From Pelagomonas calceolata (Eukaryota): a stretch of DNA of 64,000 bases. The notes beneath the pieces are model-generated. The model saw only the letters and a list, made by a program, of their open reading frames with translations, had not been told where the DNA came from and did not search any database. Shown here piece by piece: positions 47,291 through 56,158 of this stretch. Where the stretch lies: assembly GCA_918797485.1 (NCBI GenBank), contig CAKKNE010000001.1, positions 4,898,001 to 4,962,000 on the forward strand, written 5' to 3'. How positions within the stretch are numbered: the first letter of the stretch is position 1; the number at the start of each line of letters is the position of its first letter. The position numbers were made by a program, and so were the translations under genes.

Positions 47291-47347
47291 GCGGAGAGCG
47301 CTACGACACGCGGAGAGCGCTACGACACGCGGAGAGCGCTACGACCC
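47291..47347 (+). repeat. 19-bp tandem repeat x3 immediately upstream of the ATG at 47351
   Basis: GCGGAGAGCGCTACGACAC repeated three times (last copy has one mismatch). Confidence 0.9.
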
Positions 47348-47350
47348 GCG

Positions 47351-48481
47351 ATGGACGTCCGCCCGCTCCTCGCGCAGCGCCGGGCGCCGCCAGCGCCCAA
47401 TCAGCACCTCTGGCGCGCGTTCGGCGCCGTCGCGCTGCTCCAATTCGTGACGCTGGCCGCGGTGCTCGCGTCGCGAACGGCTCCTGACGGCCGGAGGCAG
47501 CTGCTGGCCGACGAGCTCGAGCCGCCGTTCCGGAAAATACGCGAGGATATCGATCTCGGCGCCGACGAGCGGCGGCGGCTCAGCGGCGCGCTCTGGGGCC
47601 TCAAGACCGCGACGGCCGCCACCACGCTCACGAAGTTCATGGGTACCATGGTCCTCTGCGACACGTCGTCCGCGGCCATCACGGTGACGCTGCCGGCCGC
47701 GAGCGACATGTCCGAGCAGTCCGGCGCCTCGCTCCGCCACTACAAGTTCATCAACACGGGCAGCAACGACTGCACGGTCGCCCGCGCCGGGTCCGACACG
47801 ATCGTCACATCGACGCTGACCGCGACCTTTTCCGGCGGCGCGACGACGTCGACCTTCACGGGCACGGCCTTCACGCCCGCGGGGACGGTCTCGCAACCGA
47901 CCTTCACGGGAACGCAGTTCACGCCCGCCGGAACCATCTCAGCAATTACTCCCGCCGGCACCAACGACGCGCCGACGTTTACTGGTCAAGCGCACACCCC
48001 GACGTTCACCGGCGGTGCCATCACGAGTACGGTGACTCAGGGCACGATTACCACCGCCACGGTGTACACTGGGGCGGACGCCACGGCGACCACGACGGAC
48101 ACGGCGGTCGACGTCGTCACTGCGGTCGCGGCCAGCACCGTCGCGAGCGGGACCGCGAGCGGGACCATCTCGCAAATTACGCCGCAGGGAACCGTGGCCG
48201 CGCCGGTATTTAGTGGTACAGCGCACACCCCGACGTTCACGGGAACCGCGGTGACTCCAGGGGGGACGGTCTCGCAACCGACCTTCACGGGGACTCAGGT
48301 GACGCCCCAGGGCACGATTCAAACCGACACGCCCGGGGGCACGGTCGCGATCGTCAACGCCGCGACGGCGTCGACGGGCTTGACGGCGATCACGCTCAAG
48401 CCCGGGTCCTCGCTCGCGCTGGTGGGCGACGGCACGAGCGCCTGGTACCAGTACGGCGGGACGAGCATCGCCGTCGCGTAG
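47351..48481 (+). CDS. Membrane-anchored Thr/Gly-rich fibre-like protein, short paralog (8+8 modules)
   Basis: 376-aa ORF; single TM; RRQLL and RRRLS motifs; phage-fibre-like domain VLCDTSSAAITVTLPAAS...GSDTI // ITLKPGSSLALVGDGTSAWY split by FTG/PxG repeats. Confidence 0.85.
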   Translation: MDVRPLLAQRRAPPAPNQHLWRAFGAVALLQFVTLAAVLASRTAPDGRRQLLADELEPPFRKIREDIDLGADERRRLSGALWGLKTATAATTLTKFMGTMVLCDTSSAAITVTLPAASDMSEQSGASLRHYKFINTGSNDCTVARAGSDTIVTSTLTATFSGGATTSTFTGTAFTPAGTVSQPTFTGTQFTPAGTISAITPAGTNDAPTFTGQAHTPTFTGGAITSTVTQGTITTATVYTGADATATTTDTAVDVVTAVAASTVASGTASGTISQITPQGTVAAPVFSGTAHTPTFTGTAVTPGGTVSQPTFTGTQVTPQGTIQTDTPGGTVAIVNAATASTGLTAITLKPGSSLALVGDGTSAWYQYGGTSIAVA

Positions 48482-48783
48482 CAAGAGGTACTATACTTAT
48501 ATAGGGTAAGTACCTTGCGCGTAGGACCCCGCGTAACCCGAACGAAAATCAGGTGTACCTATCTCGTGGCGAGCGCTCGCAGGCCTCCCGACGACGGGTA
48601 GTCATCCAAAATGACGGCGCGAAGCCAGCGCCCAAGCACGAAGCCTGCGGTCCGGCGGAGGAGCGCTTTTGTGAGGGCTGCCGGTCGAGCAACGCTGCCC
48701 CACGCAGCCGCGATGGACCCGTGACACACCCATCATGGCGACCGACGCCAGGCATTGCCAGTGAGCGCCAGGCATTGACACCG

Positions 48784-50991
48784 ATGAAGGTAGCTTGCTC
48801 ACCCGAGGCCTGGCCCCCCAGGCGCCCCCCGGCGCCGTCGACGACGAGAAAGGTCTGCTCGCCCGTGGAGACCTGGCCCCTCCGGCGGCCCCCGGCGTCG
48901 CCCGAGGAGACCTGGCCCCTCCGGCGGCCCCCGGCGCCGCCGGCGCCCAACCGGCGCGTCTGGGGGGCCATCGGGGCCATCGTGCTGCTCCAGACGGCCA
49001 CGATCGCGGCGGTGCTCGCGCCGCGCCCCGAGACCGACGCCCGGCGGCGGCTGCTCGACGAGGAGATGATCGAGCCGCCGTTGCTCAAGGTCCGCGAGGA
49101 CCACGACCTCGGCGAGGTCGACGAGCGGCGACGGCTCAGCGGCGCGCTCTGGGGCCTCAAGACGGTGACGACCGCCACGACGCTCACGAAGTTCATGGGC
49201 ACGATGGTCCTCTGCGACACGTCGTCCGCGGCCATCACGGTGACGCTGCCGGCCGCGAGCGACATGGCCGAGCAGTCCGGCGCCTCGCTCCGCCACTACA
49301 AGTTCATCAACACGGGCAGCAACGACTGCACGATCGCCCGCGCCGGGTCCGACACGATCGTTACTTCTACCCTGACCGCGACCTTTACCGGCGGCGCGAC
49401 GACGTCTACCTTCACAGGAACGCAGTTTACGGCTACCTTCACCGGCGACCAGTTCACGCCCGTCTTTACGGGAACAGATTATACGCCAGCAGGGACCGTC
49501 TCCGTACCGACCTTCACGGGAACGCAGACGGCCCCGGCGGGCACAATCGGTGCGATTACACCAGCCGGCACAGTCTCGCAGCCCACGTTTACCGGCGACG
49601 CTTACACGCCTGAAGGCACCAACAATGCGCCAGCGTTCACGGGGACGCAGTACACGCCCACCGGAACCATATCGGCAATTACGCCAGCTGGAACCGTGGC
49701 CGCGCCGGTATTTAGTGGTACAGCTCACACCCCAACGTTCACGGGTGATGCAGTAACCCCAGCGGGAAGCGTGGCCGCGCCGGTATTTAGTGGTACAGCA
49801 CACACCCCAACGTTCACGGGTGATGCAGTAACCCCAGCGGGAGACGTGGCCGCGCCGGTATTTAGCGGTACAGCTCACACCCCAACGTTCACGGGTGATG
49901 CAGTAACCCCAGCGGGAAGCGTGGCCGCGCCGGTATTTAGTGGTACAGCTCACACCCCAACGTTCACTGGCGATGCAGTAACCCCAGCGGGAAGCGTGGC
50001 CGCGCCGGTATTTAGTGGTACAGCTCACACCCCAACGTTCAGTGGCGATGCAATCACAAGTACGGTGACTCAGGGCGCGATTACCACGGCCACCGTGTAC
50101 ACTGGGGCGGACGGCACGGCGACCACGACGGACACGGCGGTCGACGTCGTCACGGGGGTCGCGGTAAGCACTGTCGCGAGCGGGACCGCGAGCGGGACCA
50201 TCTCGCAAATTACTCCCGCTGGCACCAACGATGCGCCGGCGTTCTCGGGGACGCAGTTCACGCCCGCCGGTACCATCTCGCAAATTACTCCCGCTGGCAC
50301 CAACGATGCGCCGGCGTTCACGGGGACGCAGTTCACGCCCACCGGAAGCATCTCGGCGATTACTCCCGCTGGCACCAACAATGCGCCAGCGTTCACGGGG
50401 ACGCAGTTCACGCCCACCGGAAGCATCTCAGCAATTACTCCCGCTGGCACCAACGATGCGCCGGCATTTACTGGTACGCAGTTCACGCCCGCCGGAACCA
50501 TCTCGGCAATTACTCCCGCTGGCACCAACGACGCGCCGGCATTTACTGGTACGGCTCACACCCCGACGTTCACGGGTGATGCAGACACCCCAGAGGGAAG
50601 CGTGGCCGCGCCGGTATTTACTGGCACGGCGAAGGCGCCCGCCGGCACGGTCAGCCAGCCGACCTTTACCGGAGACGCGTTTACTGCGACATTTACTGGG
50701 ACGGACTACACCCCCGCCGGGACGATCAGCCAGCCGACCTTCACGGGCACCCAGACGGCGCCCGCCGGCACGATCGCCGCGATCACGCCCACGGGGACCA
50801 TCTCCGCGGTGACGCCCGCCGGCACGATTCAAACGGACAACCCCGGGGGGACGATCGCGATCGTCAACGCCGCGACGGCGTCGACGGGCTTGACGGCGAT
50901 CACGCTCAAGCCCGGGTCCTCGCTCGCGCTCGTCGGCGACGGCACGAGCGCCTGGTACCAGTACGGCGGGACGAGCATCGCCGTCGCGTAA
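48784..50991 (+). CDS. Membrane-anchored Thr/Gly-rich fibre-like protein, long paralog (27+27 modules)
   Basis: First in-frame ATG at 48784; same architecture and near-identical flanking domain as 47351-48481. Confidence 0.85.
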   Translation: MKVACSPEAWPPRRPPAPSTTRKVCSPVETWPLRRPPASPEETWPLRRPPAPPAPNRRVWGAIGAIVLLQTATIAAVLAPRPETDARRRLLDEEMIEPPLLKVREDHDLGEVDERRRLSGALWGLKTVTTATTLTKFMGTMVLCDTSSAAITVTLPAASDMAEQSGASLRHYKFINTGSNDCTIARAGSDTIVTSTLTATFTGGATTSTFTGTQFTATFTGDQFTPVFTGTDYTPAGTVSVPTFTGTQTAPAGTIGAITPAGTVSQPTFTGDAYTPEGTNNAPAFTGTQYTPTGTISAITPAGTVAAPVFSGTAHTPTFTGDAVTPAGSVAAPVFSGTAHTPTFTGDAVTPAGDVAAPVFSGTAHTPTFTGDAVTPAGSVAAPVFSGTAHTPTFTGDAVTPAGSVAAPVFSGTAHTPTFSGDAITSTVTQGAITTATVYTGADGTATTTDTAVDVVTGVAVSTVASGTASGTISQITPAGTNDAPAFSGTQFTPAGTISQITPAGTNDAPAFTGTQFTPTGSISAITPAGTNNAPAFTGTQFTPTGSISAITPAGTNDAPAFTGTQFTPAGTISAITPAGTNDAPAFTGTAHTPTFTGDADTPEGSVAAPVFTGTAKAPAGTVSQPTFTGDAFTATFTGTDYTPAGTISQPTFTGTQTAPAGTIAAITPTGTISAVTPAGTIQTDNPGGTIAIVNAATASTGLTAITLKPGSSLALVGDGTSAWYQYGGTSIAVA
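49684..50058 (+). repeat. 75-bp coding tandem repeat x5 (PAGSVAAPVFSGTAHTPTFTGDAVT)
   Basis: Five near-identical DNA units visible directly. Confidence 0.9.
50194..50562 (+). repeat. 75-bp coding tandem repeat x5 (GTISAITPAGTNDAPAFTGTQFTPA)
   Basis: Five near-identical DNA units; different sequence from the first array but same unit length and copy number. Confidence 0.9.
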
Positions 50992-51001
50992 GAAACTTGA
51001 A

Positions 51002-52069
51002 CTACTTCTTCTTCTTACCCTTCCCCTTTTTACCTTTCTTTCCTTTCTTGCCCTTCTTCTTCTTGCCCGACCGCGCGCGCCGCCCGCGGAACTGCGCCTG
51101 GATCCGCGCGATGCCCCGCTCCATGCGCGCGCGCTTCTCGTCCGCCTCGCGGTTCGCCTCCTTGATGAGGCGCTCCTCCTCGGCCTCGATTGCTAAATCT
51201 TGGTCGATGACGGCGTAGTACTCGGCGAGCTCATTATACTCCTTGAGCTCCCGGTCGTACTTTTCCCGTAAGTCGTCGACCTCGCCCTGGATTTGGAACA
51301 TATTCACGTCGTACTTCTCGATCGTCGCCCTCAATTCCGCCTCGACCTTGTTCCGCCGCCGCCGCCACAACAACAACTCGTCGGCCTGCTCTTGGAGTTG
51401 CACCGCGAGCTTGGCCTCGGCCTCGGCGATCTTGACCTCGTTCTCCTTGACCGTCTCCACGTGAATCTCTTCGTATTCCTTGATCTTCTCGTCGGCCTCG
51501 CGGTCCCTCAACGCCTTCTCCGCTTGCGTGGCTTTCTCGTGCTTCTCGATCTCGGCGCTCAGCGCCGAGCAGATCGTCGCGGCCGTGGCGCTGTCCTCCT
51601 CGAAGCGTCGGCGAGCCCTACTCTGCTCGGCCTCGACCGCGGCCTTCGTCTCCGCGGCCTGCTGGCTCTTCATCCGTGCTCTACTCAAATCCTCCTCCTG
51701 CCGCCGCTGGTGCTGCACCGTCTCGCCGAGCCGTCGCCCCACGACCTCCTTCAGATCCAATAAAGCGTCCACGAAGGCCTTGGACTCGGACCGGTCGTGC
51801 GCCCCGTACCGCTGCAGGACCGCGAACGTCCGCGGGCTATCCCTTAAACACCGGCAGACCTCCCGCGCCGACTCTTGGAGTGCTGCCGCCTCGCCCTTCG
51901 CCTCGAGCTCCCAGTGCCGCGAGAAGACGTCGTAGGGCCCCGGCTCCAATTCGGCCAACACCGCCTCGTGCGCGCGCTCGGGCACGTACGACAAGAGCAT
52001 GATGCGCTCGATCGAATCATCCAGGATGCTCACGACGCGGTTGCGCTCGGAGTTCGTGATCTTGTGCAT
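51002..52069 (-). CDS. DRC10: Dynein regulatory complex subunit 10 (IQCD)
   Basis: KITNSERNRVVSILDDSIERIMLLSYVP, long coiled coil, RRRNKVEAELRATIEKYDVNM, IQ motif IQAQFRGRRAR, Lys/Gly tail. Confidence 0.85.
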   Translation of the reverse strand: MHKITNSERNRVVSILDDSIERIMLLSYVPERAHEAVLAELEPGPYDVFSRHWELEAKGEAAALQESAREVCRCLRDSPRTFAVLQRYGAHDRSESKAFVDALLDLKEVVGRRLGETVQHQRRQEEDLSRARMKSQQAAETKAAVEAEQSRARRRFEEDSATAATICSALSAEIEKHEKATQAEKALRDREADEKIKEYEEIHVETVKENEVKIAEAEAKLAVQLQEQADELLLWRRRRNKVEAELRATIEKYDVNMFQIQGEVDDLREKYDRELKEYNELAEYYAVIDQDLAIEAEEERLIKEANREADEKRARMERGIARIQAQFRGRRARSGKKKKGKKGKKGKKGKGKKKK

Positions 52070-52434: not shown

Positions 52435-55431
52435 TCACAAAGCCCCCTCTTCGGGCATTTCCCCTTCCGAAATCTCCGCGGTGGCGTCGCGCACATCGGC
52501 AGCCGCGTCGGGCGCCGCCTCCTCCACAGACTCAGGTTCCGCGGCGCTGGCGTCGGGAACAGCATTTTCAGGCTCTACCGCTGCCACAGGCGTCTCCGAT
52601 GCCGGAGGAATCTCCTCGTCGGATGACGTGGTTTCCTCGGGTTCCGCCGCGGCGTCGGCGGGCTCAGGTTTGGGCGCAGGCTCAGACGCCTCTTCCGCAA
52701 GCGGAGCACCCGCCTCGGACTCAGGACCCGATTCCCGCTCCGGCTCAGACGCCGCCGCCTCTGCCTCGGCGTCCAGATCCGCGCGCGCCGCCGCCAGGAT
52801 CTCGCGCTTCGCGCCCTCGTACTCGTAGAGGTGGTCCAGCGCATCCAACGCCAGCAGTTGGACCCGCTTGTCGCGCGACGCGACGACCACGCTGCTCCCG
52901 ACCACGGCCGGCGCCGCGTTGTACGACGCCGCGTCGTGGCGCCACCGCGTGGTCCCATCGGCCAGATTGACGGCCGTGAGCTTGAGGTCCGTGCCGGTCA
53001 CGACCAGCGCGCCGCCCGCGAGGCTCGGCGCCGTCCACCGCACGTCCTGCGATTCCGTGGTCCAGCTCGCGACGCCAGTTCTCGCGTCGACGGCGACGAG
53101 CGCCGCGGGCGTCGAGGCAATTAGTAAATTACCGACCAGCGTCAGCGCGACGACCGGCGCGCCCACGTCGAGCGCCCATATTTTTTCACCCTCGGCCGTG
53201 TCGAGGGCGTACACCTTGTGGTCCTGGCTGCCCGCATAGACGACGCCCGACGCGAGGACGAGGTTCGCCTCGACGGGGCCATTAGTTTTGAACCGCCAGC
53301 GCACGTGGCCGTCGTGGGCCCGCAGCGCGTAGACATATGAATCGACGCCGCCGGCGTATACGTGGCGCGCGTCCGCCGCCGGCCGGCCCGTCACGAGCTG
53401 GCCCGTCGGCTGCGCCCATTTCAAAGCGCCGCTCGTGCGGCGGAGGCAGGCGATGTTCTGGCCGATCCCCACGAACAGATCCTCGTCGTTGACCGTAAAA
53501 CGGCCGACCTCGCCCGCGTGGTCCGCGCGCCACCTTTCGAGGCCAGTCGTCGCGTCCAGCATGCGGACCTCGCCGCTCTTCGACCCGACGACGACAGAAT
53601 CGTCCGTCGCGACGACGGACGTGTAGGGCCCGCCGTCGACGAACCACAAGGGCCCCCCCGTTGTCTCGCTGATACCGTACAAGCCCTCGGCGAAGCCCGC
53701 CGTCACCACTGTACCGGAAGTGACGGCGGGCGCCCAGGCGCTCAGGAGCGTCTCGGCCTTGAAGCGCCACTTTACTAATTCGTCGCCCGACGACTCGATG
53801 AACCCGCGTTTCACGGGCAGCGGCTTTTCTACCACTTCTTCTACTCTCTCGAGGGCCGCCTCCTCGGCTCTAGCTTTCCACTCGCTCGCCGCCTCTTCAT
53901 CCTTCGCCAGCCCGGGGCCGCCCCCCTCGTAGGCGAACGCCAGCGCGAACATCGCGTCGACGTCCTCCCGCAGCTCCACGGCCTTCTTCCACCTTTGAGT
54001 CGCCGCCCGCAGGTCGCCGTCCTGCTCCGGACGTCGTATGGAACTAAAGGACAAGAGCTCCTCCTTCGCCTGCCTGCGCCGGAGCTGGTCCTGGGCTCGC
54101 TCCGCCTCGAGCTCGCGCATCCGCCGCGTCCGCTCCCGCCGGTTCTCCCGATGCATTCTCATCTTCTCGGCCTGGTCGCGCCGGGCGGCCTGGTGCTCCT
54201 CCGAGGCTTGTTCCGCCTTCCGGCGCCGCTGCTCCAGCTGCTCGCGCGGCGCGAGCTGTTGTATTTCTTTCTCCTCGCGGAGGGCCTCCATGGCCTCGCG
54301 CTGCATCCGCTCGGCCTCTTGGAGCGCTCTTTTAGCTTTATACCGCGCGTAGGCCGCGCCGGCCGTGGGCAGGGGCTCCTCCTCTGGCTCGTCCCATCCT
54401 AGTTTTGACTCGGGCTCCTCCTCGGCCTCTTCCCATTCTTGCTCTATTTCTGGCTCAGGATCAGCCTCGGGCTCCTCTTCTGGCTCGGTCTCTGGCTCCG
54501 GCTCTGGCTCCGGCTCTGGCTCCGGCTCGGGAGCGTCGGACTCCTCCTCCTCCGCTGCTAGCTCCCCTTCCGTCTCGGGCTCGGCCTCGGGCGCCTCGGA
54601 CACGTCGGGTGCCGCGTCCGCCTCCGCCTGCTCGGCGGCGCGTCGTTCCTCGGCGGTGGCGCTTGCCCTGGCCTCGGCCGCGCGGCGCTCCCGGTCTGCC
54701 CGTTCCGCGGCCTCGCGGGCCTCGGCCTCTGCACGCGCCTCTGCGGCCCGTTCTTCCTCGAGTCTCTGGCGCTCCCGTTCTGCGGCGGCCGCCTCGGCTT
54801 CGCGCGCCGCCGCCTCCCGTTTCTCCGCCTCGGCGCGCTCGCGGGCCTCGGTCTCGCGGCGTTCTTTCTCCGCCGCCGCTTCCGCTTCCTGCTCAGCTAT
54901 CCGCTGCGCCTCAGCCTCGCGTTCCCGCGCCGCCGCGGCCTCGGTCTCGCGGCGTTCCCGCTCCGCCGTCGCCGCGCGCTCGGCTTCGGCCCTCTCGGCC
55001 GCGACGCGCCGTTCCTCGGCGGCCCGCGCGGCGGCGGCTTGTTCCGCCTCCAAGCGGTCCGCTTCTGCTTTTTCGGCAGCTAACCTTTCCGCTTCTGTGC
55101 GCTCCGCCGCCAATCGCTCGGCCTCTAGCTCTTCGGCGGCGCGGTCGTTTCCCGTGACCAGGCGCACCGGCACGTCGTCCGAGGCCGGTCCCGCGGCCTC
55201 GGCCGGCGCGGCCGCGGCATCGACGTTGTCGAAGAGGCGGCCCGCGCGCAGCCTGTCGAGGCGCGCGCGCAGGTCCTCCGCCGCCGCGCCGTCCGGGGCG
55301 GCACCGGTGCCCGCGCCATCTGGGGCGGCACCGGTGCCCACCCGGCTCAAAATGTTCTTTATGCGCGCTGAGGCGTCGTCGTTCGGCTGCGCCACCGCTG
55401 CAGCGGCGGCTAGCAGCATAAATCGAAACAT
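52435..55431 (-). CDS. Secreted protein: signal peptide, E/R/A coiled coil, Sel1-like repeat, PQQ/BamB-like beta-propeller
   Basis: MFRFMLLAAAAAVAQ; AMFALAFAYEGGGPGLAKDEEAASEW; repeated VYALDxxxGxxxW blades. Confidence 0.8.
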   Translation of the reverse strand: MFRFMLLAAAAAVAQPNDDASARIKNILSRVGTGAAPDGAGTGAAPDGAAAEDLRARLDRLRAGRLFDNVDAAAAPAEAAGPASDDVPVRLVTGNDRAAEELEAERLAAERTEAERLAAEKAEADRLEAEQAAAARAAEERRVAAERAEAERAATAERERRETEAAAAREREAEAQRIAEQEAEAAAEKERRETEARERAEAEKREAAAREAEAAAAERERQRLEEERAAEARAEAEAREAAERADRERRAAEARASATAEERRAAEQAEADAAPDVSEAPEAEPETEGELAAEEEESDAPEPEPEPEPEPEPETEPEEEPEADPEPEIEQEWEEAEEEPESKLGWDEPEEEPLPTAGAAYARYKAKRALQEAERMQREAMEALREEKEIQQLAPREQLEQRRRKAEQASEEHQAARRDQAEKMRMHRENRRERTRRMRELEAERAQDQLRRRQAKEELLSFSSIRRPEQDGDLRAATQRWKKAVELREDVDAMFALAFAYEGGGPGLAKDEEAASEWKARAEEAALERVEEVVEKPLPVKRGFIESSGDELVKWRFKAETLLSAWAPAVTSGTVVTAGFAEGLYGISETTGGPLWFVDGGPYTSVVATDDSVVVGSKSGEVRMLDATTGLERWRADHAGEVGRFTVNDEDLFVGIGQNIACLRRTSGALKWAQPTGQLVTGRPAADARHVYAGGVDSYVYALRAHDGHVRWRFKTNGPVEANLVLASGVVYAGSQDHKVYALDTAEGEKIWALDVGAPVVALTLVGNLLIASTPAALVAVDARTGVASWTTESQDVRWTAPSLAGGALVVTGTDLKLTAVNLADGTTRWRHDAASYNAAPAVVGSSVVVASRDKRVQLLALDALDHLYEYEGAKREILAAARADLDAEAEAAASEPERESGPESEAGAPLAEEASEPAPKPEPADAAAEPEETTSSDEEIPPASETPVAAVEPENAVPDASAAEPESVEEAAPDAAADVRDATAEISEGEMPEEGAL

Positions 55432-55726: not shown

Positions 55727-56158
55727 ATGACGACCCAAGAAGAGGACGCTTTCGACCTGTCGCGCGTGCAGCTCAACAAAACGCAGGATTGGTGCTATCA
55801 TGAAGGCTCCTACGGCCACAACCCGGAGTATGGCGCAACGCACATCCTGACGATCGGCAGCAACAACACAGCACATACCACGACGGACTACGACGACGGC
55901 GCCAACGTGAACAAGTCGGCGGCGAAAGGCGCGATCACGTTCTGGCGGATAAGCACGCGCGGCGAATGTTACGTGCCGAAGGAGGTTTCCCCGACGGGTG
56001 ACATCGGCCACACGCACAGCGTCTCAAAACGAGGCGACACGCTGACCGTCACGGTCAACTACGGCAAGACGGGCGAGAAAAAGACGGAGACGCTCTCCGT
56101 CGCCGAGCTCTACCGGCAGTTCGTCGCGGGCGGGGAGGCGGTGTACTACAAACCGTGA
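55727..56158 (+). CDS. Hypothetical protein (143 aa)
   Basis: ATG ORF with GC3-biased codons and globular-looking composition; no family recognised. Confidence 0.65.
   Translation: MTTQEEDAFDLSRVQLNKTQDWCYHEGSYGHNPEYGATHILTIGSNNTAHTTTDYDDGANVNKSAAKGAITFWRISTRGECYVPKEVSPTGDIGHTHSVSKRGDTLTVTVNYGKTGEKKTETLSVAELYRQFVAGGEAVYYKP

Follow-up and report, generated by a model that had tools for sequence, protein, structure and literature searches.

The window, a stretch of 64,000 nucleotides of Pelagomonas calceolata (contig CAKKNE010000001.1, positions 4,898,001 to 4,962,000), is eukaryotic, as seen from the genes that flank the pair studied here, which encode a kinesin, a cofilin, a light-harvesting protein, a protein kinase, a GLTP and an LCIB-type protein. 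The two genes, hereafter A and B, lie in tandem on the + strand, and the list of open reading frames (ORFs) with their translations revealed a common architecture. The sequence motifs that an earlier note had picked out were found in frame in gene A, with matching parts in gene B. An exact copy of the gene A protein and near-identical proteins are on public record. The features of both genes are the following (window coordinates, with the evidence in brackets).

47351..48481, + strand: gene A, 376 aa, with leader, hydrophobic segment, RxL, split XD1 domain and 191-aa hairpin insert (ORF)
47417..47473, + strand: hydrophobic segment of A, aa 23-41, a predicted type II signal anchor (mean hydropathy 2.04)
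47573..47581, + strand: RRL motif of A, a predicted pro-region cleavage site directly upstream of the domain (fixed RxL offset across the family)
47582..47803, + strand: N-part of the XD1 beta-sandwich of A, aa 78-151, with both conserved cysteines (profile and profile-profile matches; pLDDT mostly 70-95)
47804..48376, + strand: out-and-back needle insert of A, with out arm, tip (48017-48166) and back arm (7/7 mirrored anchors; repeats match phage-type proteins)
48377..48478, + strand: closing strands of the A XD1 and C-terminus (+13 bits of profile score; pLDDT blocks 71-93)
48661..51004, + strand: transcript of gene B, without intron (raw poly(A) reads, four runs, one sample)
48784 (ATG)..50991, + strand: gene B, 735 aa, A-like architecture with a 509-aa insert, the expressed copy (ORF, reads, mirror pairs)
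48964..49020, + strand: hydrophobic segment of B, aa 61-79 (mean hydropathy 2.02)
49129..49137, + strand: RRL motif of B (fixed RxL offset across the family)
49138..49359, + strand: XD1 N-part of B (211/219 nt identical to A)
49360..50886, + strand: needle insert of B, arms of 231 and 229 aa, tip at 50050-50199 (26/26 mirror pairs)
50887..50988, + strand: closing strands of the B XD1 (last 123 nt: 120/123 identical to A)

Several smaller features accompany the pair. A short tandem repeat of about 17 nt, in three copies, lies upstream of A (window 47291-47345), and the leader of B contains WPxRRPPA tandem units (window 48787-48950); the copy number of both repeats differs among public variants. 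The variants P0007-P0011, P0014 and P0016 combine the B leader with the 191-aa insert of A or with shorter inserts (173 and 64 aa), and either the tandem copies have recombined or these mosaics stem from assembly collapse. Window 51002-52069 on the - strand holds a convergent gene that is expressed and encodes a coiled coil ending in a basic tail; it has no Pfam match, and its stop codon falls a few bases from the poly(A) site of B. Further downstream, a well-expressed 143-aa gene, also without a Pfam match (window 55727-56158, + strand), adjoins the light-harvesting gene.

Expression was analyzed with the reads of four poly(A) runs from one sample. Gene B gave a strand-specific poly(A) transcript, with a read depth of approximately 6-626 across coding bins of the + strand, read ends near 48661-48679 and a poly(A) tail behind 51004, while A, at a depth of 0-5x, was nearly silent in those runs. 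Both genes are embedded among host genes according to the flanking annotation, and B is transcribed as a host mRNA. Gene B is unspliced: no GT-AG joint was detected in its reads, the sole joint being a 123-nt skip within the repeats with GG..AC ends. Gene A is one open frame with too few reads to judge splicing, and hence the statement of the earlier note that both genes lack introns is borne out by reads for B and, for A, by the single frame only. As an argument for transfer, intronlessness carries no weight, because the neighbouring genes (13 kb at 51-64 kb, two of the runs) were also devoid of GT-AG joints and few introns are reported in P. calceolata (0.186 or 0.45 per gene, depending on the literature source). 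At window 50844-50865, about 5-12% of the reads carried other letters, some with loose ends, and two of the read changes yield the Ile-Ser-Asn reading of paralogue P0017, which suggests that another place in the genome holds a third expressed paralogue, more distant from A and B. Window positions 53166 and 60172, on opposite strands, are also linked by reads (81 of them in one run, with a short side of about 20 letters), probably owing to a short sequence common to both places.

The host domain was characterized by profile comparison. A word-based search with the N-part of A returned one insert-free tandem protein, P0136 (E 8.9). At a threshold of E 0.001 this protein has 1356 relatives, the best 120 of which were used. 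A first profile, built from 136 insert-free domains cut from the P0136 relatives and containing no window sequence, gave 35.7 bits for the A N-part and 44.6 bits for the rejoined domain (the best of 432 rejoined forms), compared to a maximum of 10.4 bits for 1000 full shuffles and -1.3 for the reversed sequence. In a six-frame scan of the window with this profile, scores above 5 bits were confined to A and B. Against a larger profile of 244 insert-free domains (the 136 plus 108 from viral loci and further matches), the rejoined A domain reached 62.5 bits over profile positions 25-115 of 122. With the junction optimised for real and control sequences alike, the score was 66.4 bits with the real C-tail and 53.4 bits for the N-part alone, and none of 300 shuffled C-tails equalled the real one (best shuffle, 65.0). 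The occurrence of a split domain in A and B is confirmed as real and beyond chance.

The profile built from eukaryotic sequences only matched the insert-free profile at 97.7% and E 1.8e-12 over the N-part. A mixed profile reached residues 47-131 of T4 gp10 (E 1.1e-5), a protein that the eukaryote-only profile did not reach in the PDB, and 12/35 of the alignment members matched PF07880. The N-part alone matched phrog_31104 at 8.5e-5, with only E 0.084 in PHROGs for the whole A protein. At its best, the split domain is 41-46% identical to insert-free domains over approximately 100 residues. Neither protein matched a Pfam or NCBIfam family, and the N-part likewise has no Pfam match, missing the curated cut-off of PF07880; since P0136, the nearest insert-free seed, also stays below that cut-off (17.7 of 25 bits), the PF07880 model is narrow. 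Judged by these comparisons, the link of the window proteins to gp10 runs through intermediates. Whole proteins searched against PDB sequences retrieved nothing useful, the N-part in tblastn against cultured phages gave matches at E 1-8 only, mostly to tail genes, and the viral contigs yielded nothing closely related to the N-part, P0287 or the long clade. An atlas search, which provided leads only, scored the whole protein at 0.80 or lower and the N-part at 0.90-0.93 to unnamed, mostly viral clusters.

These data, together with the Z-scores to phage chains given below, identify what the earlier note had called a phage tail-fibre or baseplate-type domain as the XD1 sandwich of phage baseplate and tailspike proteins. 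XD1 has been described as common to gp9, gp10, CpaA and StcE, and as a trimeric spacer module in phages (PMC8825819). By profile and by model, A and B share the beta-sandwich of T4 gp9 and gp10 (PF07880) and of CBA120 TSP4 residues 79-183; they differ from these in that the domain is split by an insert of 191-509 aa and equipped with an anchor, an RxL and a fixed cysteine pair.

In two AlphaFold2 models, the N-part and the closing strands form one confident sandwich. A wide structural search ranked the Solidus tailspike first (Z 13.4, rmsd 1.6, 90 residues aligned), and the seven top chains (Z 13.4-7.8) also comprised the Pa223 capsid spike (Z 10.8, rmsd 2.6, 96 aligned), CBA120 TSP4 twice (residues 79-180: Z 10.4, rmsd 2.4, 94 aligned), a KP1 baseplate chain and, behind these, CpaA 6O38 (Z 9.3, rmsd 2.7, 91 aligned) and StcE 4DNY (Z 7.8, rmsd 2.7, 87 aligned). 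The next row scored Z 4.9 and the best eukaryotic chain Z 4.0, with similar results in an earlier search. The best matches among solved structures are thus not vertically inherited eukaryotic domains, an outcome that would have spoken against the earlier note, and no XD1 from a eukaryote was found among the structure-search matches. The structural comparison of the rejoined domain placed phage chains on top, although Foldseek gave no PDB match at E 0.001 or better. Because the alignments behind both models contained XD1 homologues, the fold match indicates compatibility and is not independent proof. The accessory domains of CpaA and StcE resemble those of A and B in fold and in their secreted context; in contrast, they are modules of bacterial proteases, have no needle and are 13-14% identical.

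The insert follows an out-and-back layout, as had been proposed. Outward from a 50-residue tip, PxG on one arm faces F-x-G on the other at a constant offset, in 7/7 mirror pairs in A, 26/26 in B and 5/5 in the paralogue P0017. None of 300 shuffles of the back-arm modules of B reached the real score (best 15); the mirror of A is weak when taken alone, as 28/1000 shuffles reach its score. In the second model, short strands and bridges are symmetric about the insert centre. This is a monomer model in which pLDDT is about 50-70 in the needle arms and below 50 in the tip, and a comparison of the needle with PDB chains returned the sandwich in all top rows and no needle match. The arm complementarity of B, kept through repeat expansion, points to selection on a paired needle. 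Assuming approximately 3 angstrom per residue, the predicted needle would measure roughly 20 nm in A and 60-75 nm in B.

The likeness of the repeats to phage fibres, also raised by the earlier note, was substantiated, since the TPxGT..PTFTG repeats occur in phage collar and gp10_C fibre proteins. The lower ranks of the first homologue list are taken up by proteins with both repeats and mirror; one of the repeat-bearing homologues is a named Caudoviricetes protein and several carry Gp10_C. On the viral contig L009, two ORFs hold needle repeats inside a collar-like domain. Neither A nor B matched a Collar or Gp10_C domain, and neither the insert nor a needle protein gave a match against cultured phages with the low-complexity filter on. 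Of 122 needle-repeat proteins, P0085 (21.4 bits) was the only one beyond the algal family to match the domain; in P0085, an unsplit XD1-like stretch precedes a gp10_C that holds the needle. The closest known layout is that of the T4 gp37 needle, where D11 is inserted out and back in the compact collar domain D10 (PMC6957217), a site comparable to the needle insertion point at which the L009 collar proteins hold their repeats. Unlike in gp37, the host of the insert in A and B is XD1, and HxH motifs are lacking. An iron-bound needle of the gp37 type was ruled out by the count of zero HxH motifs in A, B, P0017 and P0287.

The Thr-rich needle proteins contain 31-34% Ser+Thr. The TPxGT repeats are absent from P0287-P0314, of which P0287 has the tip motif in common. 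The fourfold-site G/C of the A repeats is 60/76, compared to 137/142 in the rest of the mature part (p 6e-5) and 69/70 in the domain, whose codons are fully host-like; in the B repeats it is 203/303, counts that are not independent. Tandem amplification could alternatively account for the low third-position GC of the repeats.

Each protein carries one 19-residue hydrophobic segment, conserved in 9/11 family sequences (the other two have no N-terminus) versus 4/120 insert-free proteins. Flanking charge fixes the orientation in neither A nor B; in A it is +2 on each side, and for this reason we infer the orientation of its anchor. An RxL stands at a single offset before the domain in 10/10 family sequences versus 2/99 insert-free controls. 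In each of the six distant sequences measured, it precedes the domain core by exactly 25 residues, an offset shared by A, B and P0017, while the spacer upstream of it varies widely in length and sequence. A and B have a second RxL closer to the anchor. Both cysteines are present in 7/7 split domains versus 9/243 insert-free ones, and they covary in the insert-free set (p 7e-4). No N-glycosylation sequon was found in A or B.

A pro-domain that follows the signal peptide, ends in RRL and is removed has been reported for secreted diatom proteins (PMC5525289). Given the RxL offset fixed in 10/10 family sequences and this removal at RRL in diatoms, the anchor is likely part of a cleaved pro-region, with cleavage predicted from sequence. 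Of the eukaryotic membrane anchor claimed by the earlier note, the conserved hydrophobic segment stands, whereas a permanent anchor is unlikely, as the fixed RxL points to a cleaved pro-region. The mature protein is predicted to start at 47582, almost exactly at the domain boundary drawn in that note. A and B share with the diatom RXL pro-domain proteins silicanin-1 and the silaffins an N-terminal targeting sequence, a spacer and an RRL end (PMC5525289); they differ in that the targeting segment lies 20-100 residues in and is signal-anchor-like, and no likeness of the mature parts is expected.

A phmmer scan of 1.84 billion representatives gave 60 matches, of which 26 were inspected. P0287, P0289, P0291, P0295 and P0314 are built like A and B but carry other inserts, and their rejoined domains are 39-52% identical to that of A. 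The contigs that encode four of these distant relatives are 2.1-2.4 kb in size, hold a single ORF between long untranslated ends and resemble eukaryotic transcripts; none of the distant relatives was found on viral contigs. In the long members of the family (P0289, P0291, P0295, P0314; L005-L008), the insert is a different one, rich in Val, Ser, Thr and Asn, with extra cysteines near the middle. The split point falls in the same loop in 7/7 domains, and the family is diverged (33-65% between lineages). With relatives at 39-52% identity that retain the anchor, RxL, split point and cysteine pair, the family is, by sequence, old.

Phylogenetic trees were unrooted and based on 105 columns. In an LG+G4 tree of 47 rows, in which 40/82 insert-free rows were kept and most long-branch and many distant rows dropped, the seven split domains formed one clade (100/99). 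The same clade was recovered in a 63-row LG+G4 tree (99/97, bootstrap unsettled), whereas the family fell into two groups in a mixture-model tree of all 89 rows whose calculation was unfinished. No sister group was supported, the best value being 49/88 in the 63-row tree, whose rows had been chosen for a common motif. Of the phylogeny against viral and bacterial homologues that the earlier note had proposed, the outcome is therefore a single family clade in two of three trees, but no supported viral or bacterial sister. The XD1 fold is carried by tailed phages, archaeal viruses, giant viruses and bacterial contigs (6 loci, prophage-like). All of the 45 viral ORFs that share the exact T[VI]ARAGSDTI motif of A lack a needle, and no needle-type insert was found in the insert-free homologues examined.

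As to origin, the claim of horizontal acquisition agrees with membership in the XD1 family and with the embedding in host sequence, but a phage donor is not shown, because the fold also occurs in giant viruses, in prophage-like bacterial contigs and in the bacterial enzymes CpaA and StcE, and no sister was resolved. A single, ancient acquisition from a virus or prokaryote is likely, the direction and donor of which we infer.

On balance, and by a modest measure, we favour the explanation that A and B contain a split domain of the XD1 family, likely an old single capture from a virus or prokaryote, which is predicted to form the base of a secreted, RxL-cleaved hairpin fibre. XD1 would have been captured early, and the anchor, RxL and disulfide then fitted to it. 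The TPxGT..PTFTG repeats would be a second, phage-type module that arrived later and lengthened an older, shorter stalk; the later arrival is suggested because the repeats are missing in distant members and show a lower fourfold G/C. The protein may enter the ER via the type II signal anchor, its two conserved cysteines may form a disulfide, and cleavage after RRL would free the fibre from the anchor. By analogy with gp9, gp10 and TSP4, it may trimerise through XD1, whereupon three hairpins could zip into a six-stranded needle presenting the 50-residue tip. Such a product might serve as a fine extracellular filament, be it a theca fibril, a hair filament or an adhesive fibre. The theca of pelagophytes is reported to be perforated, to contain fibrous layers and to be made in the Golgi (PMC12168098), and a secreted Thr-rich needle would fit the theca, flagellar hairs or an adhesive fibre. 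A bolder version, which we put forward only tentatively, is a two-step family of needles made from viral parts, in which an XD1 base bears hairpins with swappable tips as fine filaments of the flagellar hairs or perforated theca of P. calceolata, an abundant marine picoalga. Lineage-specific needles of tunable length would here be plugged into one XD1 loop, and the tip might act like a phage receptor-binding fibre.

Other explanations concern the source, the fate of the anchor and the role of the domain. The donor may have been a giant or other eukaryotic virus instead of a phage or bacterium, a possibility that is compatible with the favoured explanation, concerns the source only and, in our view, should be given limited credence. 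Predicted structures from Pithovirus, Klosneuvirus, Fadolivirus, Edafosvirus, Faunusvirus and Clandestinovirus match the model, the top match among them, giant-virus MAGs make up 2/80 viral loci, and virus-derived genes have been reported in a pelagophyte (bioRxiv 10.1101/2024.10.30.620910). However, two giant-virus domains fall outside the family clade and are not among the best pairwise matches, and it was in tail-collar and gp10_C proteins that the needle repeats turned up. With the same origin, the product could also remain uncleaved as a type II fibre on the plasma membrane, as the earlier note proposed; a strong hydrophobic segment is conserved across the family, and an RxL tripeptide can exist uncut, cleavage being predicted only. 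The RxL offset, fixed at 25 residues in the six distant sequences and shared by A, B and P0017 despite the variable spacer, and the second RxL nearer the anchor in A and B make this unlikely.

A mainly glycan-binding XD1 of the CpaA/StcE kind, with the insert as a spacer and not a load-bearing trimeric needle, would agree with Z 9.3 to 6O38 and 7.8 to 4DNY, domains of the same fold described as glycan-binding (PMC8825819), but phage chains score higher and the exact 26/26 arm complementarity points to a selected paired needle, so we regard it as improbable. We attach little belief to an ancient, vertically inherited eukaryotic domain whose viral likeness is convergent or stems from eukaryote-to-virus transfer: the divergence of the family (33-65%), the fully host-like codons of the domain and the unrooted trees could accommodate it, yet no eukaryote-like relative outside the small family was seen among the inspected phmmer matches, and the insert-free family is large, mostly viral where labelled, and represents the simpler state. 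Least credible of all is the view that the genes are a decaying endogenous viral remnant with no role in the host. Gene A is nearly silent in the four runs, and the copies vary and recombine; against this, the strand-specific poly(A) transcript of B is deeper than those of most neighbours, the flanking genes are ordinary eukaryotic ones, and both frames and mirror register are intact.

In the literature searched, no description of an XD1-based eukaryotic family was found; supplementary LGT tables of the pelagophyte genome papers may list A or B. Eukaryotic reuse of phage fibre parts already has precedents, as phage fibre-associated ICA domains occur in MYRF, a eukaryotic membrane precursor (PMC3742443), and in the TLP-12 candidates of Amoebophrya, a eukaryotic fibre (bioRxiv 10.1101/2025.09.30.679562). 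In contrast to ICA, an autocleaving chaperone, the domain of A and B is a structural one, and the proteins would depend on a host protease for their cleavage. An identity of A and B with TLP-12 was rejected, TLP-12 being described as a parallel triple beta-helix with GSxxS repeats (bioRxiv 10.1101/2025.09.30.679562). If the favoured explanation is true, A and B are candidate structural proteins of the fibrous layer of the pelagophyte theca or of hair filaments, and a further case of viral fibre parts serving as eukaryotic building material; the 26-pair mirror code would be a natural rule for needle length, setting about 20 nm against 60-75 nm. The TPxGT repeats also occur in other unlabelled host proteins, P0312 and P0050, the first of which begins with a signal-peptide-like segment.
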